64,000 nt of DNA from Nitrosopumilaceae archaeon (GTDB lineage: Archaea > Thermoproteota > Nitrososphaeria > Nitrososphaerales > Nitrosopumilaceae). The stretch is taken from the NCBI GenBank assembly GCA_965209085.1, contig OZ242376.1:1024001-1088000 (forward strand), written 5' to 3'. The notes beneath the pieces were generated by a model. It was given only the letters and a program-made list of their open reading frames with translations, was not told where the DNA came from and did not search any database. Below, piece by piece: positions 1-40,695 of this stretch. Position numbers and translations under genes: made by a program. Within the stretch, counting starts at the first letter, position 1. Each line of letters begins with the position of its first letter.

Positions 1-3000
1 TAACGTCTATGATTTGGACGCCGTTTGTAGGAGAGGCCGATGCAAACAGTGCAAAAGTTGAGGCACCTATTGTTACGGTTGTAACGCTTTGTGCATTGTA
101 TAGTCGCGGATACTCTGTGCCGTTTACAAGTGTTGCAATAACAGAGGGGGATGCAGGTGAGCTGATGTCGAGTATACTAGTATTACCGATACCACCTGCA
201 GCTATGGCATATTGGGTATTATCTATTGTAAAGATGGATGTTTTGTATGCAGGTATGAAACCGGTATTATTAAATACTATACTAGGTAATGCAGGATTTG
301 TAACGTCTGCAATAATCCATGCTGCGCTGGATCCTTCCGTTAACAAGGCATATGTTTTACCACTTGTTTCAAACAGATTGATGGTAGTAGGAGGTATATT
401 GGTTGAAAAATCAGTACCTTTTGTTAGTATTCCACTCGGAGAGTGGATAAGTTTAGTTTCAAGTGCCAATTGCGCTACATTCAAAACATTCACAGTACGG
501 GATATGGTGTTACCTGGATTTCCTGCAACATCTGCAGGAGCTGCATAGGTTAGCGTGTACGTACCTATTGTATTTGTATTTACTGTATCACTGCTGTATA
601 CTATAATGTTCTCATACGAGGCATCTGATGCAATAGCACCCGGATCCGTAAAAATAGCCCCCTTTGCAACGTTTACATTGTCTGTACCGCGCAGCGATAT
701 GGCAGGTCTTATTGTATCAATTGTAACGTATGAATTGTCAGTTATTTCAGAGTTTGTCACGTATAAGATATTCCCTCTAGCATTTTCCAATAAAATGGTA
801 AACATTGCATCACCGTTTGGACTTTGATCAGATATTGTAGCAGAAAGGGTCACAGTATTGCCAGATATAACAGGTGTAGCATTTGTGCCAAACAGCGTAC
901 CGCTTACACTGGTCGGATCAAAGCTGTCCAAAACAAGTGTGAGTGATACTGTCTGCCCGGCGCGTGCAAAATTATCACTGCCAGTGCCTGATATGCCCAA
1001 AGATGTAACAAGTGTTTGCAAGCTATTCGATACGGTAACTGTTCGTGTTATACTAGGACCGGCATTTCCTGCCCCATCAGCTGCAGCAGTATACGTGTAC
1101 GTTACTGTAGAGTTTATCACGCTAGTATCCAAAGTGCCGATGATTACAGTAGTAAATGTATAAGGATAGTTTGGGTCCCCATCAGTTATGATTACACCAG
1201 GGATGGACGGATCAATTGAATTCAAAGGTACCATAAAAGATGAGTTGCCAATGAGGGATATTTCAGGTGCGATTGTATCGATGAATATGCGACTGTTCTG
1301 CGGTATGGCACTCTCTGTTACAAACAGGGTTGTACCCTCAGCGTTTACAACCTGTATTGCAAAGGTGATATTTGATTCAACAGGGGTGGCAGGTACTGTT
1401 ACTGTAGCGTTATAATTGGTACCAGTTATGGTTGCATTGGGGGTTAATTCGAGTATTTGGCCTGCATGCGATGAGATTGTATCATTTACGGTAAATGCAA
1501 TTCCCAATGTATCACCTGCTTTGGCATATGATTGGTCAGGATTACTGGTAGTTGAGATTACAGCAGAGGATCTCACACTTATGATTTGCAGACCATCATA
1601 TAATGATGTCACAAGGACATATGTTAAATCATTTATGCGTGCAAGAGCAATATCAGATGTACCATTCAGATTTGTATATCCACTAGTATCATCTGCAATA
1701 TTGTATGCCGGTAACGGGTTTTGTGGGTCTGTAATGTCTATAACTTGGATGCCATTATCACCATTTGATGCCACAAAGGCATACGTGGATAATCCTATTT
1801 GTTTTGCGACTATAGATAATGGGGCATTTAGTGTGTCATATCCGTCTATTCCGTCAGTAACTGAAGATACAGGGGAGGGGTTGTATGGGTCTGTAATGTT
1901 TATAATTTGGACGCCATTATCAGTTTTGGCTGCCACTAGGGCATACGTTGAGCCATCTATTGCTATCGTAGTGACATCCCATGCACCATCTAGTTCCGGA
2001 TATAATGTACCATCTGTAACCGAAGATGCAGGGGAGGGGTTGTATGGGTCTGTAATGTTTATGATTTGTACACCATTATCAACACTGGCTGCCACTAGGG
2101 CATACTGTGAGGATCCAATTGTTACGGTGGTAATGCCTTGTGCGCCATCTAGTACAGGGTATGTTGTACCATCTACTATATTTGATACATGTTTTAGACT
2201 GTCGGGGAATGTAGCGTTTACGATTTGGACGCCTTTATCAGTATTTTGGGAGGATATCAGGATATACGGTGTGGATCCTATTTTTATAGTGGTAACGCCA
2301 GTTGGAGAATTTACTGTCGGATATAAAGATCCACCGTCTATAGAACGGAGTACGGATGGTGATGCAGGATTGCTGAGATTGTAAATATTAACGCGGCTAG
2401 TAAAAGTTGACATGATGCCATACGGCAGACCGTCTACTGTAAGGATGGCCGAATCATGCGTAATAAAGCTGCCAATATTTTGTTCAGATATAACACTAGG
2501 TAATGCAGGATTTGTTATATCTAGAATAAAGAAATCATTGTTTGTATTAAATCCGTTGGTTACAAGAGCATATGTTTTGTCATTTATTTTAAACGGGTCT
2601 ATAGAGTTAAAGGTATAATCGCTGCTAAAATCAACGCCTCTGGTTAATTTTCCAGATGGAGATATAGATTGAAATTCAAGATCTAATGGCGGCACATCAA
2701 GGACATTCACAGTACGGGATATAGTGTTACCTAAATTTCCTGCACCATCTGCAGGAGCTGTATAGTTTAGCGTGTACGTACCTATTGTATTTGTATTTAC
2801 TGTATCATTGCTGTATACTATAATGTTCTCATACGAGGCATCTGATGCAATAGCACCTAAATCTATGAAATTGGCCCCGCGTGCCAGGGTTATATTTTCA
2901 GTACCGAGCAGAGATATCTCAGGTTTGATGGTATCAATGGTAACATACGAGCCATCCTTTATATCGATATTGGATATGCTAATTTGATTTCCGCTAGAGT

Positions 3001-6000
3001 TTGTCACGGTAATTGAAAATGTAGCATTTCCATCATCGCCAGATACGACAGTGGCAGTAAATTCAGCAGAACCGCCGGTTGTATCATTTACCAACTCTCT
3101 TCCAAGCAATGTTCCAGTGATATTGCCCAAATCGGAACCATCTGTGACAAGAGTGAGGGTTATGATTTTGCCTGCATTTGCATAATTGGTGCCTGATGAG
3201 CTTGCAATACTCAGCGAGTTGATTGTAATTGGTTCAGTCTCAACCACTGTAACTGTACGGGATATGCTATCTCCGAGATTTCCTGCATTATCAGCATCTG
3301 CCGTATACGTGTAAACAAAAACAGCGCCAAGTATGCTGGTATCAAGTGGAGGGTTTACTGTGGCGGTGTAAGTTCCCGAATAGTTTGGATCACCGTCTTT
3401 TGCAGTGGCACCGGGATCTGCATATGTGCTGCCTAAAACTATGGTTCCGTTTGCAGATCCTATCAGGGTTATGTTTGGAGGTATGGTATCGACAAATACG
3501 TTGGGACCGGTTAGATTATCTTCTGTAACAGTCAGGGTTGTTCCGTTGATGTTTGTAACAGTAAAGGTAAATGTAGCGTTTGATTCGGTTGCATTATTTG
3601 GAGTATTTAAATCTGCAAAGAGTTGACGGTCATTGCCACTAGTAATAAATTGAGTATCGGGGTCAGTGTTTAGAATTTGACCCGTATAGGTTATAATTGT
3701 ATAATTTACCGTCAACTCTAGATCCAGTCTATCGCCTGCTTTGGCGTATGATTTGTTGGTATTGAAAGATGTTATGGTAAACTCTGTGATACCAATTGGC
3801 AGTGTATCCTGTACGATAACATTCCGTGTTATGGTAGATCCTGTATTGCCTGCAGGATCATCTGGTGCAGTATAAGTGAGGGTATAATTACCAACTATTG
3901 CAGTATTTACATTGCCGGCTCCGGATACTTGTACGCTACTTGTTGCATATGATGCATCAGTTGCTGTGGCACCTGGATCCGTATAGGGGGAATTTGTTGC
4001 AACGCGAGTGTTGTTTTCACCGTTTAATGTTATGCTAGGTGCAGTTGTATCTATGGCAATATTTGATCCAGTCAGGTCTCTATTTGTAAATGTTGTAAAT
4101 GTGGAATTATCCTCGTTGTATGCGGTAATCAAAAATGTGACGCTGGCAGTATCGACAAAGGTTCCAGCAACTGTTACCGTGGCGGATGCATTATTGCCAG
4201 TGACAGTATATGCAACAGGATTGTTGGCAATTGTTCCTACAATATAATCAATCGTGCCGTTTGTAGCAAGCGTTACTATAATCACATCCCCGTCTTTGGC
4301 AAAAGAGGTGTTTACATTGTTGGATTCAATTGTCAGCGAATTCAGACCCAGAGGTTTTGCAAATACTGTAACTGTTCTAGTTTGTTGATCCGGCTCGTTA
4401 CCTGCAACATCCGCAGTGCCAGTATAGGTAATGTTTTGTGGGCCAAGTATCGCGGTGTTTAATGATGTGTTAGATACGGAACCTGCATATGATGCATTGT
4501 TACTATCTGATATTGTGGTGCCCGGATCCTGATATGTCTCACCCTGGAATACAGAACCTGCACCGCCAGTCAAAACAATTACGGGTTTTATCGTATCTAT
4601 TGTGACAAACGAGCCGTCTGTGGTGTCAGTAGTTATTATTGAAATTTGGTTGCCGCTAGAGTTTGTCACGGTAATTGAAAATGTAGCGTTTTCATTTGTA
4701 TCACCTAGCTGGACGGTAACAGTAAAGGTGGCATTGCCGCCGTTTGTAGTATTTGTAGATGATCTACCAAGCAGTGTTCCAGTAAAGTTGCCAAGATCCG
4801 AACCATCAGTGGCAAGTGTGAGGGTTATGATTTTGCCTGCATTTGCATAATTGGTGCCTGATGAGCTTTTAATAGTCAGCAAGGTAACATTTATTGGGTC
4901 AACATCCACTATCCGAACGATTCGGGTTGTGTTATCTCCGGGATTTCCTGCATTATCATCATGTGCTGTATACGTGTATTCGTAGATTGCACCAGGTATT
5001 GCAGTACTAAATGTGCCGTTTATGGTGGTGTTGTAAGTGCCCGAATAGTTTGGATCACCGTCTTTTGCAGTGGCACCCGGATCAGTATATTCGCTGTCTA
5101 AAACTATTCCACTGTCTGCAGGTCCTATCAGGGTTATGTTTGGAGGTATTGTATCGACAAATACGTTGGAACCAGTTAGATCGTTTTCTGTTACAGTCAA
5201 GGTTACTCCGTTGGCATTTGTAACCGTAATGGTAAAAGTGGCGTTTGATTCGATTGTACTAGTTGGAATTACACGACTTGCTGCGAGGGTACTACTTGAC
5301 GAAGAATTAGTAGTGAGTGAACCGTTTTGAATTTGTACCGTATCGCTTGTAATGGTATCGTTTATCACCAACGTTAGAGTCAGCACATCGCCAGCTTTTG
5401 CGTATTGGGTGTTTTGGTTGGAAGATGTAAATGTTAATATGTTAATTTTAATTGGCGGTGCATCCTGTACTGTAACAGTCCGTGTTATGACAGGTCCAAT
5501 ATTACCTGCAGGATCATCAGGTGCAGTATAAGTGAGAGTATAGATGGCATTTGTTGTAATATCTAAATTGCCGGTTCCGGATACCTGTACGCTATCTGTT
5601 GCATATGATGCATCAGATGCTGTGGCGTTTGGATCCTCATATGGTTGATTCCTGATAACAATGGTGTTGTTTGCACCGTTTAATGTTATACTTGGTGCAG
5701 TCGTATCTATAGTGACATATGATCTGTCTGTGATGTTAGCATTTGTTACTGATATTTGGTTGCCACTAGAGTTTGTCATGGTAATTGAAAATGTAGCGTT
5801 TTCATTTGTATCACCGGACTGGACGGTAACAGTAAAGGTGGCAACGCCGCCGTTTGTAGTATTTGTAAATGATCTATCAAGCAGTGATCCAGTAAAGTTG
5901 CCAAGATCCGAACCATCAGTGTCAAGTGTGAGGGTTATGATTTTGCCTGCATTTGCAAAATTGTTTCCAGAAGAGCTTGCAATACTCAGCGAGGTAACAT

Positions 6001-9000
6001 TTATTGGTTTAACGTCAACCACTGTAACTGTACGGGATATGCTATCTCCGAGATTTCCTGCATTATCAGCATCTGCCGTATACGTGTAAACAAAAACAGC
6101 GCCAAGTATGCTGGTATCAAGTGGAGGGTTTACTGTGGCGGTGTAAGTTCCCGAATAGTTTGGATCACCGTCTTTTGCAGTGGCACCGGGATCTGCATAT
6201 GTGCTGCCTAAAACTATGGTTCCGTTTGCAGATCCTATCAGGGTTATGTTTGGAGGTATGGTATCGACAAATACGTTGGGACCGGTTAGATTATCTTCTG
6301 TAACAGTCAGGGTTGTTCCGTTGATGTTTGTAACAGTAAAGGTAAATGTAGCGTTTGATTCGGTTGCATTATTTGGAGTATTTAAAAATGCAAGGAGTGT
6401 AATGTAGGTTTCAGCAAATAAAGTATCTGGGTTAGTGTTTAGAATTTGACCCGTATAGGTTGTAATTGTATCATTTACCGTCAACTCTAGAGTCAGTCTA
6501 TCGCCTGCTTTGGCGTATGATTTGTTGGTATTGGCAGTTGTAATGGTAAACGCTGTGATATCAATTGGCAGTGTATCCTGTACGATAACATTCCGTGTTA
6601 TGGTAGATCCTGTATTGCCTGCAGGATCAACAGGTGCAGTATAAGTGAGGGTATAGTTGTCAGCTGTTGCAATATCTACAGTGCCGGTTCCGGATACTTG
6701 TACGCTACTTGTTGCATATGATGCATCAGTTGCTGTGGCACCTGGATCCGTATAGGGGGAATTTGTTGCAACGATAGTGTTGTTTTCACCGTTTAATGTT
6801 ATACTAGGTGCAGTTGTATCTATAGTGACATGTGAGCTGTCTGTGATGTCAGCATTTGTTACTGATATTTGGTTGCCACTAGAGTTTGTCACGGTAATTG
6901 AAAATGTAGCGTTTTCATTTGTATCACCGGACTGGACGGTAACAGTAAAGGTGGCAACGCCGCCGTTTGTAGTATTTGTAAATGATCTGCCAAGCAAGGT
7001 TCCGGCGATATTGCCCAAATCAGAACCATCAGTGGTAAGAGTGAGGGTTATGATTTTGCCTGCATTTGCATAATTGGTGCCTGATGAGCTTGTAATACTC
7101 AGCGAGGTAACATTTATTGGGTCAGCATTAACAATCGTAACGCTTCTTGTCTGGTTTTCAGGTATATTACCAGCTGAATCCGCTTGTGCTGAATACGTGA
7201 CCAAATAACTAGCACCCAATACCGCACTGTTTATATTTTCAGATACGGTTGCGGATGTTTGTACATAGTTTGGATCATTGTCAGTTACTAGGGATCCATC
7301 ATCAATGTAAGTTGCATCTAGTGTCAAACTTTTATCGCTAGAACCTATCAGGGTTATTACCGGAGATTGTGTGTCTATATTGACATTGCTTGCAGTAATG
7401 TCCAATTCAGTTACAGTTTTTGTATTACCTGCACCATCAGAGATTGTAATGGCAAATACAGACGGGCCATTTGACGTATTCTCATCAATGTTCACACTGG
7501 CAGTGATGGTATTGCCAGGTACATTGGTTTGCGGTGTTTTTCCTAGTATGTGTCCATTTAGAAAAGATACAGGTTCATTTGCAACCAATGTGAGTGTTAT
7601 AGTATCAGATGATTTTGCAAATGCAGAATTGATATTGTCTGATGTGATAGAAAGTGAATTTAATGATGGCGCGATGGCATCTGTTGCAGTTACAGATCCA
7701 GAGTTTGCAATATTGCCTACAATATCAGATACACTCCCAATCAGTGTTATAACAGGTGTTGCATCTGCAGTAATGGGATCAGTTTCTATTCTCACCACAT
7801 TGTTTAAAACTGTTGCAGCAATTGCACTGATGCTGCCACTATCTATAGAAAAGTCGTTAGCGTTCAGGTTAGTGGAAGAAATGTCTTCATTGAATGTTAT
7901 TTCAATCGACGTTGTATCTAGTGTTCTAGCAGAAGACATGAAAGGTGGGGTTGTATCAGATATAGTAATTTGTTCTTTAAGCATTGCCAACCCCGTAATA
8001 TCACGCATTAATCCACTCATTTGTAACGTAGAGTTTGGCTGTAGTTTTCTATCAAATGTAAGACTGGTTGAGAGATTATCATTAGAAGTTGTAATACTGG
8101 TGATTACTCTTTGTGTCACATCTTTACTACCTACACCCTGAACCAAATCTATGAACGTTATCTCAAAGTCTTCTTCACTTATCAGGTCTTTACGTATTGG
8201 TTCGCTGTACGAGATATTCAAGTTGTAATAGTTGTCATATTCAGCTGATGTAATCGTTGGACGTATTCCGTCAGACACAGTTATGGTTGTTCCAATTGTG
8301 ATATTACTAGGTTGATACCTCGGAATACCAATATTAGTATCGGATATGTTGCCAGATATTGTTATAATAGGTGTGCTATCAGATGGCAGTTGATCTGTCG
8401 TAACCAAAATTATCTTGTTACGTTCAACTGATGCGCTTTGTAAAGACAATGAATCAGATAGTGTAAAGTCGGTCGTCTCAACATCTGCCATGTTTTTACT
8501 TAGTGTCAGAATGATCTTATTTCCATCGCCAGTTTCTGCCCTCAGTATTCTCGCAGGCAACAGAGTTTGATCCACTTTAATCGTAAAGTTTTTCAAAGCA
8601 ATGTTTTGCAGGTTATCAACAAAATTTTCTCTAGGGGCAAGTATTAGGTCTAGATTTGACTGGTTGAAAACAAATGGTAGGGGATCGGCGGGATTACCAT
8701 TAAATTGTATACCCAGATAACCATATACAGGGGTGATATGTGCTGGTTTCTTGTCATTTATTGTATAACCAGACACATCAAAAGTGACTATGTTATCATC
8801 AGACAACAATATCATAGTAAGAAAAATATTGGTGGATCCTCCATCATAACCCCAAAATGCGTTTATAGGGTATGGTCCCACTGTATCTGGTACGGTATGT
8901 GCAGTATACTCTATAGAGTTGCCACTACCATCTTTTATTACAGAATCAAGTATCTCAATGAGGGGAGTATCAACACTTGACAAAACGGTTGTGTTTAACA

Positions 9001-11440
9001 GTACAGTATTGCCAGATATTGCCGCATTTTTTACAACAGCGATAGCACTCGTGTTAGATATGCGAAAACTGTCAACTTTAAACTCAGTATCAGCTATAAT
9101 AGTTTCTGAAAATTCAATACTTAACGAGGTGTTTGATGCATGTGTAATGCTAGTTATTCTAGGAGCAACGCCGTCCTCTGCTGTGGTAGATACGTTAGTT
9201 GGAACTAGTTGTAATTGTATGTCTCCAGATACCGCATCTATAACAACGTTTGATGTTTTGGCAGTGTCTGTAGTATTGGTTTTTATTATAACATGAGGTA
9301 TGTTGTCATTATATCCTGCAAAAGAGAGTACATGCAGACCGCCTCGAGCGTTGAGATAATTGGCGCCGAGTACAATGTTTGGTGCACCGTTGGAATTTAA
9401 ATCTCCTAGTACAGCTATAGAACGTGCGATTTGAGAATTGCGTTGGAATTCAGTGTTGCGAGGTTCTAGAATTAAATCATCTATCGTTGCACTTGAAATT
9501 TCATAATACCCGTTTACAGATGTTCCGTTTGCTCCAAGGGATAATACATAAAATGCACCTGCAGTTTGAAAATTCGGAGTTTCGGGGGCAGATATTATCA
9601 TGTCGGTGTAGCCATCACCATTTATATCATTTAGTTTTGCTATGGATGACCCAAAAGCAACTGCTGGGCCAAAATCAGGTGGAAAATTTGAACCATGTAT
9701 ATTCATTCTACTAATATCTAGTATAGTTTCTCCGCGTTCACCTAGATGTATTGTGTATATAAAACTGTCCTTAGTTGCAGAATCGATGCTAGTTATCATG
9801 ACATCCGTATATCCATCATGGTTTAGATCACCCATGTTTTCAACAGCTACTCCAATAAGGGTCTCAGGGTGGTTTGGAAATGATGGAACTTGACTCTGTA
9901 TTACAGATAAATTATATTCAATTGTCTTTATCGGGAGACCATCACTGCCAAGATGCATGATGAAAAAAGAACCAACAACTATGGATGTATTTATACCGTT
10001 TTCAATGATAAAAGCAGGTGTGTTTATAGCTGAAACTAGAATGTCTTGTATTCCATCAGTATTTAGATCACCCATGTTTGTAATAGCAGTACCAAAGCCT
10101 AGACCGTTGTGTATTGTACTGTTAATATCGGCATATCCTAACACGCTAGAACCGTTTGGTCCAAGAAACAGCACGTACACAGAACCAAAAGCATCACCAT
10201 CAACCCGTACAGCACTGGCACCTACGGCGATATCCGTAAAGCCGTCACCGTTTATGTCGCCCAAATTTTCTAGAGATAAACCAAATCTTGAACCCAAGGT
10301 AGTATTATCGATTTTTGATAGTTCTGGCATATTTTCAGAGTCGCCGTCAAATAAAAATACGTCCAAAATAGACTCGGCATTTTCTCCCAAATGTACTATT
10401 GCTACGGCCCCACCCGCAGATGACTCACTTGCGTGTTTTGGTATTCCTACCATGATATCCTCGTATCCATCATCATTGATGTCACCCAAAGGAGATACAG
10501 CATATCCAAAATCATCATAGTATTTTATAAATTCTAAACCTGGCGTCGTACTGTCAAAAGTTGTTATTGATTTTATTTGTCCAGATATAGCCGCAGATTT
10601 CACACTTGCGCCATCCACTGTTATAGCAGAAGTCAAGGTGTTGTTTCCACTAAAAAAAGCATGCTGGTTGGTATTAAATCTCAACAAAATTGTTTCATTG
10701 TCGACATGTTTTGCACTAGCGGTTAACGAAGGGTCTTGTACGAACACCGTTCTAGTTTTACTAAAGGGTACATTTCCTGCGCCATCATTAGGTGCGGTAT
10801 ATTCCACAATAAACGTACCTATTGTACCAGTTGTTATAGATGAAGAATTGTCAGTTATTGTACCAGAATAAAGCGGATCACCATCAATTGCACTAGCTCC
10901 AAATTCCGTATAAGATTCACCCTGTGTAACGAATACGCCAAATGGACCGTTTAATGTTATGACAGGTATGCGTTTATCCACAAATACTGGCGTCGTACCT
11001 TGTGAAAGATTTTCTTCAGATAATGATATGTCTCCAGAGTTACTGGATACGTTTATTTCGAAATTTGCATAACCGTCAGGATCAGTTTCCAATATGGTTA
11101 TTGTGGCATTGAGTTCATTACCCAAAACTGATACGGTGGCATATTTACCATGTATTGTCGCCGTGGCATTATAATGCAACGTTTCATTCGCTTTAAAGTT
11201 TACAGTGATAGTATCGCCAGCATTGGCATATGCTGGATTTGTATTATTACTACTAGTTGTAATATTACCCGTTACCGGTTCGGTTAATGTTATAATGGGT
11301 AATGATAATGGTTGGTTTTCTTGATCACCAGCACCAAAAGTTAATTCTGCTGCTGCAACATCCTGGACATCATATGCAAAAGGGGAAATAAATGGTAAAG
11401 GCGACAACAACACTAGTGCAAATATTGCAACTGCATACAT
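1..11440 (-). CDS. Giant secreted/surface protein (>3813 aa, runs off the left edge): signal peptide, Ig-like/DUF5011-like repeats, FG-GAP (integrin-alpha-like) repeats, LVIVD-like repeats
   Basis: Manual translation from ATG 11440 gives MYAVAIFALVLLSPLPFISPFAYDVQDVAAAE. The same frame reads TNGVQIIDV at the left edge. The track lists no minus-strand ORF here, consistent with no in-frame stop. Motifs: FGYAVSPLGDINDDGYEDIMVG, LENLGDINGDGFTDIAVGA (FG-GAP); PVITLNG...YTAPxDxAGN (DUF5011-like); GVQIINITDPYNPSP (LVIVD-like). Confidence 0.9.
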   Translation of the reverse strand, partial: MYAVAIFALVLLSPLPFISPFAYDVQDVAAAELTFGAGDQENQPLSLPIITLTEPVTGNITTSSNNTNPAYANAGDTITVNFKANETLHYNATATIHGKYATVSVLGNELNATITILETDPDGYANFEINVSSNSGDISLSEENLSQGTTPVFVDKRIPVITLNGPFGVFVTQGESYTEFGASAIDGDPLYSGTITDNSSSITTGTIGTFIVEYTAPNDGAGNVPFSKTRTVFVQDPSLTASAKHVDNETILLRFNTNQHAFFSGNNTLTSAITVDGASVKSAAISGQIKSITTFDSTTPGLEFIKYYDDFGYAVSPLGDINDDGYEDIMVGIPKHASESSAGGAVAIVHLGENAESILDVFLFDGDSENMPELSKIDNTTLGSRFGLSLENLGDINGDGFTDIAVGASAVRVDGDAFGSVYVLFLGPNGSSVLGYADINSTIHNGLGFGTAITNMGDLNTDGIQDILVSAINTPAFIIENGINTSIVVGSFFIMHLGSDGLPIKTIEYNLSVIQSQVPSFPNHPETLIGVAVENMGDLNHDGYTDVMITSIDSATKDSFIYTIHLGERGETILDISRMNIHGSNFPPDFGPAVAFGSSIAKLNDINGDGYTDMIISAPETPNFQTAGAFYVLSLGANGTSVNGYYEISSATIDDLILEPRNTEFQRNSQIARSIAVLGDLNSNGAPNIVLGANYLNARGGLHVLSFAGYNDNIPHVIIKTNTTDTAKTSNVVIDAVSGDIQLQLVPTNVSTTAEDGVAPRITSITHASNTSLSIEFSETIIADTEFKVDSFRISNTSAIAVVKNAAISGNTVLLNTTVLSSVDTPLIEILDSVIKDGSGNSIEYTAHTVPDTVGPYPINAFWGYDGGSTNIFLTMILLSDDNIVTFDVSGYTINDKKPAHITPVYGYLGIQFNGNPADPLPFVFNQSNLDLILAPRENFVDNLQNIALKNFTIKVDQTLLPARILRAETGDGNKIILTLSKNMADVETTDFTLSDSLSLQSASVERNKIILVTTDQLPSDSTPIITISGNISDTNIGIPRYQPSNITIGTTITVSDGIRPTITSAEYDNYYNLNISYSEPIRKDLISEEDFEITFIDLVQGVGSKDVTQRVITSITTSNDNLSTSLTFDRKLQPNSTLQMSGLMRDITGLAMLKEQITISDTTPPFMSSARTLDTTSIEITFNEDISSTNLNANDFSIDSGSISAIAATVLNNVVRIETDPITADATPVITLIGSVSDIVGNIANSGSVTATDAIAPSLNSLSITSDNINSAFAKSSDTITLTLVANEPVSFLNGHILGKTPQTNVPGNTITASVNIDENTSNGPSVFAITISDGAGNTKTVTELDITASNVNIDTQSPVITLIGSSDKSLTLDATYIDDGSLVTDNDPNYVQTSATVSENINSAVLGASYLVTYSAQADSAGNIPENQTRSVTIVNADPINVTSLSITSSSGTNYANAGKIITLTLTTDGSDLGNIAGTLLGRSFTNTTNGGVATFTVTVQSGDTNENATFSITVTNSSGNQISVTNADITDSSHVTIDTTAPSITLNGENNTIVATNSPYTDPGATATDASYATSSVQVSGTGTVDIATADNYTLTYTAPVDPAGNTGSTITRNVIVQDTLPIDITAFTITTANTNKSYAKAGDRLTLELTVNDTITTYTGQILNTNPDTLFAETYITLLAFLNTPNNATESNATFTFTVTNINGTTLTVTEDNLTGPNVFVDTIPPNITLIGSANGTIVLGSTYADPGATAKDGDPNYSGTYTATVNPPLDTSILGAVFVYTYTADADNAGNLGDSISRTVTVVDVKPINVTSLSIASSSGNNFANAGKIITLTLDTDGSDLGNFTGSLLDRSFTNTTNGGVATFTVTVQSGDTNENATFSITMTNSSGNQISVTNANITDRSYVTIDTTAPSITLNGANNTIVIRNQPYEDPNATASDASYATDSVQVSGTGNLDITTNAIYTLTYTAPDDPAGNIGPVITRTVTVQDAPPIKINILTFTSSNQNTQYAKAGDVLTLTLVINDTITSDTVQIQNGSLTTNSSSSSTLAASRVIPTSTIESNATFTITVTNANGVTLTVTENDLTGSNVFVDTIPPNITLIGPADSGIVLDSEYTDPGATAKDGDPNYSGTYNTTINGTFSTAIPGAIYEYTYTAHDDNAGNPGDNTTRIVRIVDVDPINVTLLTIKSSSGTNYANAGKIITLTLATDGSDLGNFTGTLLGRSSTNTTNGGNATFTVTVQLGDTNENATFSITVTNSSGNQISIITTDTTDGSFVTIDTIKPVIVLTGGAGSVFQGETYQDPGTTISDSNNASYAGSVSNTSLNTAILGPQNITYTGTADVAGNEPDQQTRTVTVFAKPLGLNSLTIESNNVNTSFAKDGDVIIVTLATNGTIDYIVGTIANNPVAYTVTGNNASATVTVAGTFVDTASVTFLITAYNEDNSTFTTFTNRDLTGSNIAIDTTAPSITLNGENNTRVATNSPYTDPGATATDASYATSSVQVSGAGNVNTAIVGNYTLTYTAPDDPAGNTGSTITRNVIVQDTLPIGITEFTITSFNTNKSYAKAGDRLDLELTVNYTIITYTGQILNTDPDTQFITSGNDRQLFADLNTPNNATESNATFTFTVTNINGTTLTVTEDNLTGPNVFVDTIPPNITLIGSANGTIVLGSTYADPGATAKDGDPNYSGTYTATVNPPLDTSILGAVFVYTYTADADNAGNLGDSISRTVTVVETEPITINSLSIASSSGTNYANAGKIITLTLVTDGSDLGNITGTLLGRELVNDTTGGSAEFTATVVSGDDGNATFSITVTNSSGNQISISNIDIKDGSYVTIDTIKPEISLLGTENITLARGANFIDLGAIASDASYENIIVYSNDTVNTNTIGTYTLNYTAPADGAGNLGNTISRTVNVLDVPPLDLEFQSISPSGKLTRGVDFSSDYTFNSIDPFKINDKTYALVTNGFNTNNDFFILDITNPALPSVISEQNIGSFITHDSAILTVDGLPYGIMSTFTSRVNIYNLSNPASPSVLRSIDGGSLYPTVNSPTGVTTIKIGSTPYILISSQNTDKGVQIVNATFPDSLKHVSNIVDGTTYPVLDGAQGITTVTIGSSQYALVAASVDNGVQIINITDPYNPSPASSVTDGTLYPELDGAWDVTTIAIDGSTYALVAAKTDNGVQIINITDPYNPSPVSSVTDGIDGYDTLNAPLSIVAKQIGLSTYAFVASNGDNGIQVIDITDPQNPLPAYNIADDTSGYTNLNGTSDIALARINDLTYVLVTSLYDGLQIISVRSSAVISTTSNPDQSYAKAGDTLGIAFTVNDTISSHAGQILELTPNATITGTNYNATVTVPATPVESNITFAIQVVNAEGTTLFVTESAIPQNSRIFIDTIAPEISLIGNSSFMVPLNSIDPSIPGVIITDGDPNYPYTFTTVIIGTLDTSVINSTVTYTYTAAADGAGNAGPSITRTVTVSNSLQTLVTSLGISGTGSDNFARAGQTVSLTLVLDSFDPTSVSGTLFGTNATPVISGNTVTLSATISDQSPNGDAMFTILLENARGNILYVTNSEITDNSYVTIDTIRPAISLRGTDNVNVAKGAIFTDPGAIASDASYENIIVYSSDTVNTNTIGTYTLTYAAPADVAGNPGNTISRTVNVLNVAQLALETKLIHSPSGILTKGTDFSTNIPPTTINLFETSGKTYALLTEGSSAAWIIADVTNPALPSIVFNNTGFIPAYKTSIFTIDNTQYAIAAGGIGNTSILDISSPASPSVIATLVNGTEYPRLYNAQSVTTVTIGASTFALFASASPTNGVQIIDV
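3241..3611. repeat. Intragenic direct repeat, copy 1 (copy 2 at 6016-6386, offset 2775)
   Basis: About 370 bp that appear identical by eye; the shadow ORFs 3346..3528 and 6121..6303 translate identically. Confidence 0.9.
6016..6386. repeat. Intragenic direct repeat, copy 2
   Basis: Matches 3241-3611. Confidence 0.9.
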
Positions 11441-18462: not shown

Positions 18463-21400
18463 CTAGTAGTCTTCGCGGTAGGGTTCAAGCGGCATGATGG
18501 TTGTTTTATTTTTTATCGACCATTCAATGGTCTTTACAAAAGATTCGGCAAGCTCAGGCGTGGTGAGGACTGGAATTCCCATCTCTAGTGCCTTGCGACG
18601 TATGAGATATTCATCAGAAAGCATTCCCACGTATTTTTCAAGGGTCGATGTTCCAGGTATGTTTATTATAAAATCAATTTTATGCTCGTATAACAAATCC
18701 GATATGTTTGGTTTTCTGTCCGGTTCGCTTATTTTATGGACTGTTTTGGCACCTGGCAGGGTTTTTGCAAAAAATTCCACAGTGTGCTCTGTTGCACAAA
18801 TTTCAAATCCCATCTGGTGCAGCGAGGCAATGATCGGCAAAAGACGTTCTTTGTTTTCAGTCCCACCTATGGTGACAAGCGCCATTCCCGAATGCGGTAT
18901 GTGATACCCCACGGAGGTGAGCGCCTTGGATAATGCATCATAAAAGCTGCTCCCAAAACACGCAGCCTCTCCTGTTGATTGCATCTCCACTCCCAGCACA
19001 ATGTCTGCCCCTTCAAGCTGCATGAATGAAAATTGGGGTACCTTTATCCCGTACACCTCTGTTTTTTTCCAGTGATCATGGCGTATCTCCGGCAGTCCCT
19101 CCCCCAATATTGCACCAGAAGCTAAAGAGATGAGGTTTGTTCTGACAAGTTTTGAGACAAACGGCATGGAGCGGGACGCGCGTATGTTGAGCTCTATTAC
19201 GTATACGGTTCCCCCGTTTATTAGAAACTGCAAGTTGAATGGACCGCGTATGTTAAAGGCAATTGCAATCTTTTCGGTATAATCTGTAATGGTTTCTATC
19301 ACCTTGTTGTTTAGTCGCCATGGTGGTATGCACATCATCGCATCCCCAGAATGCACTCCCGCGCTGTCAATGTGCTCAACTACTGCCCCTATTATCACGC
19401 GTTTTCCATCGCAGACTCCGTCAACATCCACTTCAAGCGAGTTTAACATGAATTTTGAGACAACCACGGGATGATCATTTGATATGTCTACAGCTTCGCC
19501 AATGTATTTTTTCAGCTCATTTTGCGACCATATGACGTTCATTGCCGCGCCGCTCAATACGTAAGAGGGCCGTACCAGTACAGGATACCCGACCCTTTGT
19601 GCAAATTCTTTTGCACTAGTTATGTCCGTAAACGTCTGCCAAAGCGGCTGCCTAATGTGCATTCCATCAAGCACAGAGCTGAATGTGGAGCGGTTTTCGG
19701 CCCGGTCCACATCATATGATGATGTGCCAAGTATTGGAATTTTATTCTCGGCCAGCTCGGGGGTGAGATTGTTTGCAGTCTGCCCTCCAACGCACGTTAT
19801 TACACCATGTGGTGATTCAAATTCGGCAATGTCCAGTATGCGCTCCACTGTAAGCTCTTCAAAGTACAGCCTGTCACTTGTGTCATAATCAGTTGAGACA
19901 GTCTCAGGATTACAGTTTACCACGATAACATCCCCCTTGCGGCGTTTTTTCAGCCCCAAAACCATGTTTACCGTTCCCCAGTCAAATTCCACGCTGCTTC
20001 CAATGCGGTAGGGTCCGGCCCCCAAAACGATGATGCTCTTTAATTTATCCTGTATTTTGATGTCATCAGAGTCCCCGCCGTACGTCATGTACAGGTAGTT
20101 TGTCTTTGCTGGCCACTCTGCTGCAAGTGTATCTATCTGTTTTACGCACGGTTTTATTCCAAGACGCAGTCTCATCTCCCGGATATGGTTATGGGTGGTT
20201 TTTTGCGCGCGTGCAATCTGCATGTCAGAAAAACCCAGCCGTTTGGCATCGCGCATGCGCACCCCATCTGTTGCATCGGGCAATTTTTTCCCCATCAAAA
20301 CTATGTTCCGTATTTTTTCAACAAACCACGGATCTATTGCAGAGAGTGAGGATATTTTCCCAGTGTCCATCCCAAGGGCAATTGCGTGTGCCACATTGTA
20401 CAGTATGTTATCGTCAGGGTGTAAAAGGGCATACTCTACTTCCTCCTCTGTGGGCAGATTCCCGTCCCTCTCTGATAAGATCAGCCCGTCACGTCCGGTG
20501 TCAAGCATACGGATGGCTTTTTGCAGCGACTCCTCAAAGCTGCGCCCGATTGCCATAACCTCTCCGACTGATTTCATTGTAGGACCAAGGTTTCGTTTCG
20601 CCATCTCGAATTTGTCAAAATCCCACCTTGGATGTTTGCATACGATGTAGTCAAGTGCCGGCTCAAAGCATGCAGTTGTTTTCTTTGTAATGCTGTTTAC
20701 AAGCTCTGGCAGCGTATACCCGAGTGCAATTTTTGCAGACATGTACGCCAAAGGATATCCTGTGGCCTTGCTTGCAAGAGCTGATGAGCGTGAGAGTCTT
20801 GGGTTTACCTCTATTGCTGCAAAACGCGATGATTTTGTATCCAGGGCATACTGAATGTTGCACTCTCCTACTATCCCCACGTGCCGTATGGCCTGCAGTG
20901 CCGCAAGGCGCATTTCATGGTATTCCTGGTTGTTTATTGTCTGCGACGGAGCTACTACCACGTTGTCTCCTGTATGCACACGCATTGATAGGACATTTTC
21001 CATATTACACACTATGACGCTATTGTCTGCAGCATCACGCATGACCTCGTATTCTATCTGCTTCCAGTCCCCGACATATTCCTCGATGAGCACCTGTCCC
21101 ACCATGCTTGCAGATATTCCCCTTTGAACTATCTCGTGCAATTCAATTTCATTGTGCGCCACTCCCCCGCCTTTTCCTCCAAGCGTGTACGCTACGCGCA
21201 CTATGACAGGATATCCAAGATCCGCTGCAGCATCCTTTGCACCATCAAAGCTTGTAACAGTTTTACCGCGTAAAACCGGTATCTTGCATTGTTCCATGGC
21301 ATCCTTGAAGAGCTGCCTATCCTCAGTATTGCGTATTCCATCAATCTGTGTTCCAAGCACCTTTATGCCGTATTTTGATAAAATACCCGCATCATCCAAA

Positions 21401-21723
21401 CCCACACCGCAGTTTAATGCAGTCTGGCCTCCAAACGATAAGATGAGCGCATCGGGGCGTTCCTTTTCTATGACAGACTCTACATATTGGGAATTTACCG
21501 GTAAAAGGTACACCTTGTCAGCTGAGCGCGTATCAGTCTGTATTGTGGCCACGTTTGGATTTACAAGAATGCTGGAAATTCCCTCCTCGCGCAAGGCTTT
21601 GAGGCATTGGCTTCCAGAGTAGTCGAATTGGCGGCTGTTTTAACAGCTTTCGCCGGCTTCTCCGATCTTTATTGCCCCGCTTCCTAGCACGAGTATTTTC
21701 TTTAGAGTCTCATTTTTTGGCAT
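18463..21723 (-). CDS. carB: Carbamoyl-phosphate synthase large subunit, two exons (21723-21649 and 21627-18463; 1079 aa if spliced)
   Basis: SD GGAGGTG precedes ATG 21723; exon 1 reads MPKNETLKKILVLGSGAIKIGEAGE and exon 2 FDYSGSQCLKALREEG. Two ATP-grasp halves and an MGS domain follow. The ORF track starts too late (21594). Confidence 0.92.
21628..21648 (-). other. Putative 21-nt bulge-helix-bulge/BHL-type mRNA intron (AGCUGUUAAAACAGCCGCCAA)
   Basis: Contains an in-frame UAA. GGCG/CGCC 4-bp central helix, 3-nt AAA and AAU unpaired segments, GCUGU/ACAGC stem-loop. Removal restores GEAGEFDYSG. Confidence 0.8.
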
Positions 21724-22879
21724 GTGCACCTCCATTCATCAGGCTCTGCAGCTCTTTGAATACAAACTTGCAGTCAAACGGTCCAGGAGACGCCTCTGGG
21801 TGAAACTGCACTGCTATGCATTTTTGTTTTTTATGACGTATTCCTTCCACGGTTCCATCATCGGCATTTTTAAACCACATCTCAAATTCGGAATTTTCAA
21901 GTGATTCAGGACTGATGCAGTATCCGTGGTTTTGACTCGTCACGTATACCCTGCCATCCTGCAAATTTATGCACGGTTTGTTTTGTCCACGGTGTCCGTA
22001 CTTTAGCTTGTACGTTTTTGCCCCTCCTGCAAGTCCGATTATCTGCGCTCCAAGACATATTCCAAGTGTGGGGATGTTTTTGGATACAAGGTTTTTAACA
22101 GTCTGCACCGTTTGGTGGCATTTTTCAGGATCTCCAGGTCCGTTACTCACAACCACCCCGCTTGGTTTGTAGGAGAGTATTTTCTCAGCTGTTGAATCCC
22201 ATGGAACCGTAATGACCCTATACCCAAGATCACGCACGCATCTTATTATGGCGTTTTTTACACCCACGTCAATTATGACGACCGATTCTTTTCCATTACC
22301 GTATATGTGATCCGTTGTTGTTGAAACTTGCCCCACCAGGTTTTCTGAAGAATACGCATCTGATGCGCGCATCCGCTCAAGTATTTTGTGCTCATCAATC
22401 TCATCATCGGATACGGCAACAGCTGCCATGCCCACTCCCTCCTCGCGCAGTTTTTTTGTCAAAGATCTTGTATCAATTCCAGATATTGCAGGTATTTTTT
22501 GTCCGTGCAGCCATTCATCAAGCGTCATGGACATGTTCCAGTGGCTAGCAACAGTGGAGAGCTCGTGCACCACAAGCGCCCGTGGCTGTATGCGTCCGGA
22601 TTCAGAGTTTACATGTATGCCATCCTCATCTTGAACAGACATGTCAGGTACGCCGTAATTTCCCACAAGCGGATATGTGAGGGTTAGGATTTGCCCGCAA
22701 TACGAGGGATCCGTCAAAGTTTCCACATACCCGACCATCCCTGTATTAAAGACAATCTCGCCAACAGCTGTCCCAGAATATCCAAACCCCGTGCCGTTAA
22801 ATACAGAGCCATCACTTAGAATCAGTTTCCCATTTTTATTGGCGTATTGCGCCTCTTTGATAGCTATAGTTAACCCGAT
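21710..22879 (-). CDS. carA: Carbamoyl-phosphate synthase small subunit, start codon non-canonical/uncertain
   Basis: SNGPGDP, LGICLG (catalytic Cys), GHRGQN, QFHPEA. The conserved N-terminus GKLILSDGSVFNGTGFG...GEIVFNTGMVGY lies upstream of the first ATG (22738). Confidence 0.88.
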   Translation of the reverse strand: MGLTIAIKEAQYANKNGKLILSDGSVFNGTGFGYSGTAVGEIVFNTGMVGYVETLTDPSYCGQILTLTYPLVGNYGVPDMSVQDEDGIHVNSESGRIQPRALVVHELSTVASHWNMSMTLDEWLHGQKIPAISGIDTRSLTKKLREEGVGMAAVAVSDDEIDEHKILERMRASDAYSSENLVGQVSTTTDHIYGNGKESVVIIDVGVKNAIIRCVRDLGYRVITVPWDSTAEKILSYKPSGVVVSNGPGDPEKCHQTVQTVKNLVSKNIPTLGICLGAQIIGLAGGAKTYKLKYGHRGQNKPCINLQDGRVYVTSQNHGYCISPESLENSEFEMWFKNADDGTVEGIRHKKQKCIAVQFHPEASPGPFDCKFVFKELQSLMNGGAHAKK

Positions 22880-22900
22880 CTTTAGTGCTATTTGTAGTGA

Positions 22901-22915
22901 TTTTTATATTTTTGG
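22901..22915 (-). promoter_or_regulatory. Candidate BRE/TATA of the carAB operon (CCAAAAATATAAAAA)
   Basis: TATAAAAA at 22908-22901 with an A-rich BRE-like element directly upstream. Confidence 0.55.
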
Positions 22916-37068: not shown

Positions 37069-37677
37069 GTGATAATCTGCGGTGTGGATGAGGCAGGTAG
37101 GGGTCCGATGTTTGGTCCGCTAGTCGTTGCAGGAGTTGCAATAGAGCGCTCAAAGTTGGGCAAGCTTCGCAATCTTGGTCTGAGGGATTCAAAGAAACTA
37201 AGTCCCAAAAGGAGAGAAGAGCTATATTCGGTCATAACAAAGGTGGCCGATGCGTACACCATATCAAGAATACAGCCGCACACCATAGATAAGAGCGTCT
37301 TTAAACACAAGCTGAACGAGCTGGAGGCAAAATTAATGGGCCGCATAATAGATAGACTGTCTGCAGATATTGCATACGTTGACGCATGCGATGTGAATGC
37401 TGCAAGATTTGGCAGAAACGTTGCAAAAATATCCAAAGGTGCGATTGTGCGCTCATATCATAAAGCTGACGACAGATTTGCCATTGTTTCAGCTGCGTCC
37501 ATAATTGCCAAAGTGGCAAGAGACAGGGCGGTTTTGAAACTTGGCATAGATGGAAGCGGTTATCCTTCAGACCCAAAGAGCAAGAGGTATCTTGTACGGT
37601 ACGTCAAAAAATACCACAAAGCCCCATCGTGTGCGCGCCAAAGTTGGAAGCCGGTAAAGATTGCGTTAAAGATCTAA
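37069..37677 (+). CDS. rnhB: Ribonuclease HII
   Basis: ICGVDEAGRGP, LRDSKKL, HKAD, VSAASIIAKV, GSGYPSDP; GTG start inferred. Confidence 0.93.
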   Translation: MIICGVDEAGRGPMFGPLVVAGVAIERSKLGKLRNLGLRDSKKLSPKRREELYSVITKVADAYTISRIQPHTIDKSVFKHKLNELEAKLMGRIIDRLSADIAYVDACDVNAARFGRNVAKISKGAIVRSYHKADDRFAIVSAASIIAKVARDRAVLKLGIDGSGYPSDPKSKRYLVRYVKKYHKAPSCARQSWKPVKIALKI

Positions 37678-38378
37678 TGCGCTACAATCATCGCATGATC
37701 TTTGTCGTACGGCAAGAGATCAATTACTTCCAACACGTCCATTTTGCGGGCGATTTTTTCTTTTTCTTCCTTTACCACCTGACTAGGTGTCTTTACAACG
37801 TCTATACTCCTAGTTTTTATCACCAAAAACAGCACTCCCCCCTCCTTTAGATATATTTGACAGTTTTCAAGGACAATCTGCGTCTGATCAGGCTGCGCAA
37901 TGTCAGCGTATACGACATCCACTTTGCCGTATACTGCAGAATATTCCCTAGGGCGCCTTGCATCCTGCAATACTGGAACTATGTTTTTACGGTATGATGC
38001 AACCCTGTCCAAAAAATCACGTGCCACGCGGCTTGCATGCTCTACGCAAAACATCATCCCCTGGGGTCCAACTATGTCCGAGATGTGGCTTGCGGTGGTT
38101 CCAGAAGAGACGCCAAGGTATAGAACCGAGGAGCCGTTTGTAAATGGAAATGTTTCAAGACCGTTTTTAATTGATGCTGCAAGTTTGCTGCGAAATGGAT
38201 CCCATGTACGATATTCAACGCCTTTTTTCTCCACAAGCCGCTCTTTGTATACGGTATTTCCAGGTACGAGGTTTTCTGTTGCAAGATTCATTCGACCGTC
38301 GGAACGCACAAGGTATGTGCCTTTGTGCCTACCTTCTACTAAAGCGCTTCCGCGATTTTGCTCCACGTTTTTTGTCAT
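37674..38378 (-). CDS. flpA: Fibrillarin (box C/D rRNA/tRNA 2'-O-methyltransferase)
   Basis: EYRTWDPFRSKLAA, VLYLGVSSGTTASHISD, DIAQPDQ, PYDKDH. Start is ATG 38378 or GTG 38366. Confidence 0.92.
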   Translation of the reverse strand: MTKNVEQNRGSALVEGRHKGTYLVRSDGRMNLATENLVPGNTVYKERLVEKKGVEYRTWDPFRSKLAASIKNGLETFPFTNGSSVLYLGVSSGTTASHISDIVGPQGMMFCVEHASRVARDFLDRVASYRKNIVPVLQDARRPREYSAVYGKVDVVYADIAQPDQTQIVLENCQIYLKEGGVLFLVIKTRSIDVVKTPSQVVKEEKEKIARKMDVLEVIDLLPYDKDHAMIVAH

Positions 38379-40509
38379 CCCCACTAGATCTGCCACCTCT
38401 ACGACCCTGACCTCCGGCACTACCGCCAGATCTGCTCCTATCCCCGTATCCTGTACTGCGGCGTTCGCTACTACGTCCTTCGCGCCAGCCTGAATTAGAA
38501 TCACCATCATTTTGCGTTCTTTTGTATCCACCGCCACGATAGCCATCATGAGTCTCATTTGTATCGCGTCTGCCTCTAAAACCGCCCCGGTCATCATCCC
38601 TGCCGTATCCGCCAGAATCACTATCGCTACGCTTTTTGAATTTATCAAATCCGCCCCGATCATCATTTCGGCGGAATCCTCCCGAATCACGATCGTCGCG
38701 CTTTTTGAATTTATCAAATCCGCCCCGATCATCATCTCGGCGGAATCCTCCTCGGTCATCATTTCGGCGGAATCCTCCCGAATCACGATCGTCGCGCTTT
38801 TTGAATTTATCAAATCCGCCCCGATCATCATCTCGGCGGAATCCTCCTCGGTCATCATTTCGGCGGAATCCTCCTCGGTCATCATCCTTACGGAATCCTC
38901 CCTGGTCATCATTTCGGCGGAATCCTCCCGAATCACGATCGCCGCGCTTTTTGAATTTATCAAATCCGCCCCGATCATCATTTCGGCGGAATCCTCCTCG
39001 GTCATCATCCTTACGGAATCCTCCCCGGTCATCATTTCGGCGGAATCCTCCTCGGTCATCATCCTTACGGAATCCTCCCCGGTCATCATTTCTGCGGAAT
39101 CCTCCCGAATCACGATCGCCGCGCTTTTTGAATTTATCAAAACCGCCTCGGTCATCATTTCGGCGGAATCCTCCTCGGTCATCATCCTTACGGAATCCTC
39201 CCGAATCACGATCGCCGCGCTTTTTGAATTTATCAAATCCGCCCCGGTCATCATCTCGGCCGGATCCTCCATCTTTATTTCCAAAACTTTCACGTGTTTT
39301 ATTTTCCCGATCTGGTTTGAAATTGTCTTTTTTTGCACCCCGTTCCTTAAATCCGCTGCCGCGTTCACTGTTTGTCGTATCCGATTTGGGTTCTGGCGGT
39401 TCGTCATATTTTGTGCTAATTTCAGTTATGCGTATATTTAGTTTCTCCATGAGCGTATTGTTTATGCCGTTGCCGTATACGTCCACGCGTGCGGCTATGA
39501 CAGCTTTTGCCGCCACTGCTCGCGCAATTTTACCCCTCTGCCATCGCGGAGCTGCATGAACTAGTGCGTGCTGGAACAACAGTCCGTGTTTTGGAGGTGG
39601 CGCTCCGGTTTTTAACGAACGAAATAGTGCCCGTTCTGCTCCAATCACCTGTATTGTACTAGCAGGTAAGGATGAGAGTTTTTTTAGACTTCCGGTTCTA
39701 GCAAGTATGCGGGCTGCCACACCAGTTCCAAGTATGATGGCAAGATTTGGAGCCACATTGTTCATTTCTTTTTCAAGATGATTTTCCAAGTTTTTTCTCA
39801 GATCAAGCATATCCAACATTCTTTGTGCAAGAGACTTTACTATTGCAAGATTTTCATCGGATATTTCCCCTCCGCGGCTTTTTTCCTGCACCACGTTGAG
39901 CATGTTTACCTTGGATTCGGGAAATCCAGCTTCGGTAAATGTAGCCTCGTTTAGATCTTCTCTTCGCCCAGATGCTGCTATTTTCGAATATCCTGCAATG
40001 CCGTCTATTATGTTATCTAGTTCCGGAAAGTGCAGACCGTACCATTCACGCAGTCTTGAACTTAGTGCATTGCACACTTTGTCCACCTCATCCAGTGTGT
40101 TTATCGACTGTATTACGTGCAGATCAGGACTGCTTGAAACCTCGGTAACTTTTGATGATGAAAGTGACATTGCAAAGTTGCGCAGTTTTTCAAGAGCGTC
40201 TTTTTCATCGGATGCAAATCCAGATTCTACCAGTATTTTTGGTTTTTCCATCTGTATTTTTTTCATATAATCCTCGTCTGCCATCCGCACGTCTATGGAT
40301 TCATTTTTTAGCATCATCATGAGTGATTCATCAGTTATCAAAAATCCAGTCTGCTCTTTTGCCAAATGATCTACCAAATCAGACGGGAGTGATTTTTTCT
40401 GTTTTATTGCAACGTATTCTGCCGCAGGGTCTGCAAACGGTATGGTATGTAATTTTACATCATCCTTGTATACGACTATTCCAAGCTCTGTGAGTACGAC
40501 TGTATGCAT
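38329..40509 (-). CDS. nop5: Nop5 (Nop56/58) box C/D RNP protein with an approximately 350-aa RGG-rich tail
   Basis: RLREWYGLHFPEL, APNL, LPASTIQVIGAERALF, PPKHGLLF, RGKIARAVAAK; directly upstream of fibrillarin. Confidence 0.92.
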   Translation of the reverse strand: MHTVVLTELGIVVYKDDVKLHTIPFADPAAEYVAIKQKKSLPSDLVDHLAKEQTGFLITDESLMMMLKNESIDVRMADEDYMKKIQMEKPKILVESGFASDEKDALEKLRNFAMSLSSSKVTEVSSSPDLHVIQSINTLDEVDKVCNALSSRLREWYGLHFPELDNIIDGIAGYSKIAASGRREDLNEATFTEAGFPESKVNMLNVVQEKSRGGEISDENLAIVKSLAQRMLDMLDLRKNLENHLEKEMNNVAPNLAIILGTGVAARILARTGSLKKLSSLPASTIQVIGAERALFRSLKTGAPPPKHGLLFQHALVHAAPRWQRGKIARAVAAKAVIAARVDVYGNGINNTLMEKLNIRITEISTKYDEPPEPKSDTTNSERGSGFKERGAKKDNFKPDRENKTRESFGNKDGGSGRDDDRGGFDKFKKRGDRDSGGFRKDDDRGGFRRNDDRGGFDKFKKRGDRDSGGFRRNDDRGGFRKDDDRGGFRRNDDRGGFRKDDDRGGFRRNDDRGGFDKFKKRGDRDSGGFRRNDDQGGFRKDDDRGGFRRNDDRGGFRRDDDRGGFDKFKKRDDRDSGGFRRNDDRGGFRRDDDRGGFDKFKKRDDRDSGGFRRNDDRGGFDKFKKRSDSDSGGYGRDDDRGGFRGRRDTNETHDGYRGGGYKRTQNDGDSNSGWREGRSSERRSTGYGDRSRSGGSAGGQGRRGGRSSGDDKKRGAKSRKRFSRR
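38580..39270 (-). repeat. Coding tandem repeat array (DDRGGFRR/RK units interspersed with DDRGGFDKFKKRGDRDSGGF)
   Basis: Repeated GGAATCCTCCTCGGTCATCA and GCTTTTTGAATTTATCAAATCCGCCCC blocks. Confidence 0.93.
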
Positions 40510-40695
40510 GATGCCCCTCTGCCATGTGGCATTAAATACGTAGTTAGAGATACTCTAGTACACCATGCTAAAAGATTGAATTTATTCCAATTTACGGCAC
40601 AGGCGTCAGAGCCGCAACTTTTGTGGATAAACGTATCCTGTTACACGTGCTTTATGCCAAACTGTTAATATGCCAAAACCTGCAAATTGATACGA

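Follow-up and report, generated by a model that had tools for sequence, protein, structure and literature searches.

Twenty-one nucleotides (21648-21628, minus strand) lodged in carB, the gene for the large subunit of carbamoyl-phosphate synthase, in an archaeon of the ammonia-oxidising type very probably form a genuine and ancient archaeal bulge-helix-bulge (BHB) intron of the carB pre-mRNA. The anatomy of this insert, its conservation, the covariation that it displays with its counterparts and the exact restoration of the reading frame upon its deletion are observed. Its splicing would be an obligatory and probably constitutive step in the maturation of the message, not a switch, and the dependence of CarB on this step is, judging from the comparison of genes, well founded. 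In what follows the 64-kb stretch of DNA that was analysed is named the window.

The carB frame and its surroundings

On the minus strand of the window, carB starts at 21723, behind a GGAGGTG sequence that resembles a ribosome-binding site (21733-21727). Its exon 1 (21649..21723), an ATG followed by 24 codons and ending with GAA, is translated as MPKNE...GEAGE, an N-terminus that matches that of the 1080-aa CarB proteins of Nitrosopumilaceae. After these 25 codons, as compared with homologues, the 21 extra nucleotides separate the GAA codon of GEAGE from the TTC codon of FDYSG, two peptides that directly abut each other in full-length relatives. Read without excision, the frame (21723-21640) produces 27 residues, MPKNE...GEAGESC, and then ends with a TAA (21642-21640). 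This stop codon is placed in the UAAA loop (21642-21639) of a 5-bp hairpin (21647-21643 with 21638-21634), stacked across a 3-nt bulge on a 4-bp helix. An insert with a length multiple of three, a stop in its hairpin loop and a 27-aa unspliced product is just what the original prediction had described. Beyond the stop, the frame still comprises 1054 codons that make a complete carbamoyl-phosphate synthase large subunit. This exon 2 (18463..21627, minus strand, 1054 codons and a stop, from the F of FDYSG) is open to its normal end and belongs to TIGR01369 with a score of 1356 bits, profile positions 25-1051 being matched from its residue 1.

The gene setting is archaeal, with carA, cdvC, bioF/bioB, nop5/fibrillarin, pyrD and pyrK. 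It had been claimed that pyrD and pyrK were intact, and both are present and open (40687-41601 and 41531-42394, respectively). No gene for a tRNA-splicing endonuclease or an RNA ligase was found within the 64-kb window, where neither ARAGORN nor Rfam gave a match. Some other features of the region deserve mention. On the minus strand, an ORF with a Nop5 domain (38329-40509) and one with a fibrillarin domain (37674-39407) share about 1 kb, read in different frames; tandem repeats of a 27-nt unit (38578-39270) lie within this shared part, and this is why both frames are open. An ORF of at least 3813 codons (2-11440, minus strand) runs off the end of the window, and the 1147-aa part of it that was scanned (8000-11440) comprises FG-GAP and Ig-like surface domains. 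Finally, an ORF for a DDE-type transposase (56784-57596, plus strand) suggests the presence of an insertion sequence.

The operon partner located upstream, carA (21710..22882, minus strand), overlaps the start of carB by 14 nt at its end, and it has an anomaly of its own. Its conserved N-terminus is open in frame (22738-22903) and lacks a canonical start codon: AAG is found at 22882-22880, where the 390-aa CarA proteins of Nitrosopumilaceae have ATG or TTG, and the first in-frame ATG, GTG or TTG appears at 22738, which corresponds to profile position 32. Truncation at the N-terminus is likewise annotated in its two closest relatives, which are 98% and 84% identical to it. A BHB motif or a frameshift was considered as the cause of the missing start and dropped: the candidate -1 slippery site, which would follow an out-of-frame ATG (22833-22831, then G-GGA-AAC-TGA), is not conserved in L001-L003.

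Conserved inserts, pairing and cut sites

Loci coding for CarB were collected by a scan of species-representative genomes for conserved peptide words. The matches listed comprise 80 loci, mostly bacterial, seven of which are thaumarchaeal (L001, L002, L003, L004, L005, L006 and L057). Among these 80, the GEAGE-FDYSG junction is uninterrupted in 71, all from bacteria or non-thaumarchaeal archaea; it is interrupted in six, lies at the very start of a contig that begins inside the insert in one (L004), and is not in view in two. The six interrupted loci (L001, L002, L003, L005, L006 and L057) are all thaumarchaeal and the interruption falls at an identical codon boundary, so that, within the matches listed, every thaumarchaeal locus with the junction in view (6/6) has an insert. 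All relatives come from metagenome assemblies. The inserts are 21 (window), 21, 22, 26, 28, 29 and 52 nt long, and without their removal the frame ends 3-72 nt past the 5' splice site in all seven; this bears out the claim that full-length CarB needs the insert to be removed. Exon 2 is open over 1054-1102 codons in the window and in the six of six loci that reach the stop, L005 running off its contig.

Two observations on these relatives stand apart. Exon 2 of L004 and of L006 has some 96-99 bases in excess over the stretch matched by the first 420 query residues, for ORFs of 1096-1102 aa as against 1054 aa in the window; this could be due to in-frame protein insertions or to further in-frame inserts. 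Where the start codon of carB is expected, some 75 nt 5' of the intron, L057 reads TTT, L002 TCG, L006 ATT and L005 TTG; starts that are displaced or non-canonical may be widespread in such operons, unless the assemblies are in error.

The fold of the window sequence taken alone (21610-21680) is no better than that of shuffled sequence (z = -0.25). It is thus no proof of a structure, and the comparative evidence alone counts. The comparison is made on a set of only seven sequences, which align cleanly. Over the central helix, the intron stem and a candidate outer helix, 96.7% of the pair cells are paired; this figure falls to 13-50% when partner columns are slid by 1-3 positions, and none of 500 shuffles attains it. 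The intron stem is paired in 94.3% of its cells, with compensatory double changes at four of its five pairs. The central helix (96.4% of cells paired) joins GGCG at the end of exon 1 (21654-21651) to CGCC within the intron (21633-21630) in the window, the partner of GGCG being CGCC, CGCU, CGUC or CGCA across the set. Its exon strand is fixed by coding, and its changes are of the G-U kind and on one side only, together with one G-A mismatch in L002. When left unguided, RNAalifold recovers both helices and the 3-nt bulge. The BHB geometry ascribed to the insert at the outset holds: a 4-bp helix, a 3-nt bulge and an intron stem that covaries are seen.

The order of the elements is the same throughout: the exon GGCG, an AAA bulge, the intron stem-loop, the complementary four-base intron strand and an unpaired AAU or AUU. 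In the window this core motif extends over 21627..21654, with its bulges at 21650-21648 (AA/A, 5' side) and 21629-21627 (AA/U, 3' side) and predicted cuts after 21649 and after 21628. The AAA bulge at the 5' splice site is invariant in 7/7 sequences, and AA/U or AU/U follows the central helix in 7/7. If both strands are cut after the second nucleotide of the bulge, GAA/UUY is obtained and GEAGE-FDYSG is restored, again in 7/7. In L005 and L006 any other boundary loses E-F. In L003 and L004 a TAA comes immediately before the F codon, which means that the whole insert has to go, its 3' end being untranslatable in frame. An outer helix pairing the two exons (21612..21667, minus strand), drawn from the count of pairs in the alignment and from RNAalifold, is possible and weak. 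In one version 21665-21662 pairs with 21626-21623, a shifted position that leaves 7 nt unpaired on the 5' side; in that preferred by RNAalifold 21667-21656 pairs with 21624-21612 and leaves a 5-nt loop. The bases of both are constrained by coding. This helix being weak or displaced, the 3' bulge is not cleanly closed and the motif is of the relaxed BHB form.

What is described of the enzymology agrees with this picture. In solved endonuclease-RNA complexes, according to the account consulted, the nucleophile is the 2'-OH of the second bulge nucleotide, its target the phosphate of the third, and the scissile bond follows the second nucleotide; the bulge at the 5' site of a pre-tRNA starts with position 36 (PMC12397907). 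Among endonucleases, the (alpha-beta)2 and epsilon2 types alone are said to cleave relaxed motifs, and the enzyme of Thaumarchaeota to be of the (alpha-beta)2 type (PMC5829648). We may then propose the following course of events. The central helix, of 4 bp, would arise when GGCG, the final coding bases of exon 1, pairs with CGCC in the 3' terminal part of the intron; it would be flanked on one side by the 3-nt bulge and the intron stem-loop and on the other by a 3-nt single-stranded stretch. The tRNA-splicing endonuclease would cleave each strand after the second bulge nucleotide and an RNA ligase would join GAA to UUC, yielding an uninterrupted GEAGE-FDYSG frame and a CarB protein of 1079 aa. 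For carB both the cutting and the joining are predictions from sequence.

The expectation that more micro-introns of this kind were hidden in the genome was not confirmed in the window. A palindrome search found that of the insert once, at carB. A covariance model of the carB motif gives this site 41.3 bits and finds no second copy in the window, the runner-up reaching 11.4 bits (E = 1.4). Run on 17 loci, the same model finds only its six training sites, the cut and independent copy in L004 (16.1 bits) and one weak match (10 bits). A generic scan for BHB motifs joining ORFs, on both strands of the 64 kb, gave 122 candidates including carB and had no discriminating power.

History of the insert and the case for a gate

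It had been anticipated that gene callers would mis-start such genes, and the annotations bear this out well. Of the 120 CarB proteins that best match the window, 112 run through the junction without a break and 8 begin downstream of it, without exon 1 (P0001, P0002, P0004, P0021, P0022, P0050, P0082 and P0105). The closest relative within this set, with 85% identity, is N-truncated and has Cenarchaeum symbiont of sponge as its source name. Among the best 120 matches to one CarB of Nitrososphaeraceae, which are Nitrososphaerales relatives, exon 1 is missing in 115: 114 start downstream of FDYSG and one inside the intron, leaving five that are contiguous. In metabolic reconstructions, entries of this sort could pass for truncated or defective enzymes.

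A FastTree phylogeny of 52 rows, with SH-like supports only, takes in the window together with the 7 loci that have the intron and 8 outgroup loci; to these are added the 8 truncated proteins and one in four of the 112 contiguous ones (28). The contiguous thaumarchaeal carB genes make one clade (28/28 sampled rows, support 97), nested among lineages that are intron-bearing or N-truncated, and the outgroups are contiguous. We infer that the N-truncated proteins carry the intron, on the basis of their truncated annotation only. This distribution is probably explained by one gain at the base of Nitrososphaeria, followed, probably too, by one loss in the marine Nitrosopumilus/Nitrosopelagicus clade. 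Besides this, the junction is uninterrupted in five Nitrososphaerales-like CarB proteins (P0345, P0346, P0350, P0354 and P0359), 81-82% identical to that of L002, a pattern which suggests that their group has lost the intron independently, as a second event.

What would such an insert be for? The original prediction saw it as an on/off gate, tying nitrogen use to the maturation of stable RNAs: the efficiency of splicing would shift with the growth or nitrogen state of the cell and would set the output of CarB. The idea draws some strength from the fact that the unspliced mRNA is unable to yield CarB in 7/7 orthologues, and from the maintenance of the intron at one site across deep lineages. 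The way in which translation is blocked tells another story. When conservation of a stop or of a frameshift was looked for, as had been proposed, the block was found in 7/7, yet it is due to an in-frame TAA in 2/7 and to frameshifts in 5/7. This mix is that which unselected short A/T-rich inserts would give, matching the neutral expectation, and it provides no argument for regulation. The stop itself is not conserved. The loops vary freely in sequence and in length, from 3 to about 36 nt, with no conserved loop sequence, and neither a sensor nor an alternative fold nor a known RNA family was found at the carB insert, Rfam giving no match. Moreover, a large clade has lost the intron, a second group apparently did so as well, and no substitute for it is apparent: the intron-less clades (28/28 sampled; 5 of the best 120) indicate that it is dispensable. 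A regulatory gate thus appears improbable, and the use of splicing as a switch is unsupported.

The most interesting form of this idea, because the motif lies only 75 nt past the start codon, 25 codons into the gene of an organism in which transcription and translation are coupled, is a race. Ribosomes that enter from the carB start might possibly compete with the folding and cutting of the motif, and the intron would be retained as a functional element: the leading ribosomes would open up the motif and come to a halt at the intron, unless the tRNA-splicing endonuclease got there before them. We consider this unlikely. Were it true, the supply of CarB, and hence the synthesis of arginine and pyrimidines, would track the spare capacity of RNA processing, and a splicing checkpoint acting on a pre-mRNA would control central nitrogen metabolism in ammonia-oxidising archaea. 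The start-codon anomaly of the adjacent carA might then belong to the same unusual mode of expression.

A BHB intron that is spliced as a matter of routine has to be weighed against three further readings. In the first, the ribosome itself would deal with the insert, by hopping over it or reading through it, as in the bypassing of gene 60 of phage T4. A hairpin that contains a stop codon immediately 3' of a conserved codon, as seen in the window insert, does recall that situation. Translational bypassing requires matching take-off and landing codons, and the codon preceding F is CAA, CAA, CAA, TAA, CAT, AAA or TAT, which never matches the GAA take-off codon (0/7). Five of the seven inserts have lengths that are not divisible by 3, and for these read-through would be useless, since the frame would be beyond rescue. 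Recoding is accordingly very unlikely.

In the second reading the lineage would be host-associated and carB, perhaps with carA, in the course of decay; alternatively, the insert would be an artefact of assembly. An in-frame stop at codon 28 and the sponge symbiont named as the source of the nearest CarB relative (among the best 120) would fit this scenario, and the missing canonical start codon of carA leaves some room for a decaying operon in this lineage. Independent assemblies from soil, thermal and marine lineages share the identical insert site, however, with stems that covary; 1054 further codons are open with 1356 bits against the CarB model, and the protein is 85% identical to its nearest relative over its full length. 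Further lesions were sought in exon 2 and none was found, in the window or in the six of six loci that reach the stop. We give this reading almost no credit. Nor do we grant more than a token chance to a split enzyme, in which the 27-aa peptide and a separately initiated exon-2 protein would assemble into an active CarB: an in-frame TTG at 21594, 11 codons past the junction, does open a 1043-aa ORF, but the break would fall inside the invariant glycine-rich GEAGE-FDYSG stretch, no conserved start codon follows the insert, and gene callers choose widely differing downstream starts.

Kinship with known introns

A full-text search of the literature, with subscription journals outside its scope, found no report of an intron in carB or in a thaumarchaeal mRNA; the archaeal mRNA introns that it returned were only those of cbf5 and one case in a 5' UTR. 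According to the 2020 study of this latter case, a single archaeal mRNA BHB intron had been reported before it, that of cbf5 in Crenarchaeota (PMC7714728). The 5'-UTR intron, in HVO_1309 of Haloferax volcanii, is akin to that of carB in that the tRNA-splicing endonuclease acts there on an mRNA, and excision of this intron seems to be of consequence for expression; it differs by its location in an untranslated leader and in a euryarchaeon, and the account given there reports no broad conservation (PMC7714728).

The splicing of HAC1/XBP1 by IRE1/RtcB-type enzymes would be the model of a gate, with a small non-spliceosomal intron whose removal changes the frame. As it is described, that system has a dedicated stress-sensing nuclease, while neither a sensor nor dependence on conditions is visible for carB (PMC13149111). 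The BHB introns of archaeal tRNA and rRNA, as far as the available descriptions go, share with the carB insert the geometry of the motif and the predicted cuts after the second bulge nucleotide. Their substrates are stable RNAs in which the mature fold aids recognition; the outer helix of carB, by contrast, is weak and built from protein-coding bases.

There remains cbf5, with its pre-mRNA intron of Crenarchaeota that was reportedly the subject of work by Watanabe (2002) and Yoshinari (2006). Splicing has been established by experiment for cbf5 and is deduced for carB. As surveyed by Yokobori (2009), the introns of cbf5 are 16-44 bp long, with motifs that are often relaxed, and some of them preserve the frame; a link ties them to the hetero-tetrameric endonuclease, they have been gained and lost, and they are often mis-annotated, and for Cenarchaeum symbiosum and Nitrosopumilus maritimus the table of that paper gives a count of 0 (PMC2738675). 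The resemblance, within what that survey covers, is extensive: a very short intron (21-52 nt in carB) at a single conserved site of a protein-coding gene, a BHB motif that is often relaxed in hosts with a hetero-tetrameric endonuclease, an essential conserved motif interrupted by copies some of which are in frame and some not, a history of gain and loss, and routine mis-annotation.

The putative carB intron is thus an addition to a known and very small class, in another gene and another phylum than cbf5. Conserved across soil, thermal and host-associated ammonia oxidisers, it would imply that pre-mRNA splicing by the tRNA machinery is more than a peculiarity of Crenarchaeota and reaches beyond genes of RNA biology. 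It might also serve as a phylogenetic marker, with one gain and one or two losses, and would offer a tractable natural substrate for exploring how splicing and translation coexist without a nucleus. Unlike cbf5, which codes for an RNA-modification enzyme, carB codes for a core enzyme of metabolism.
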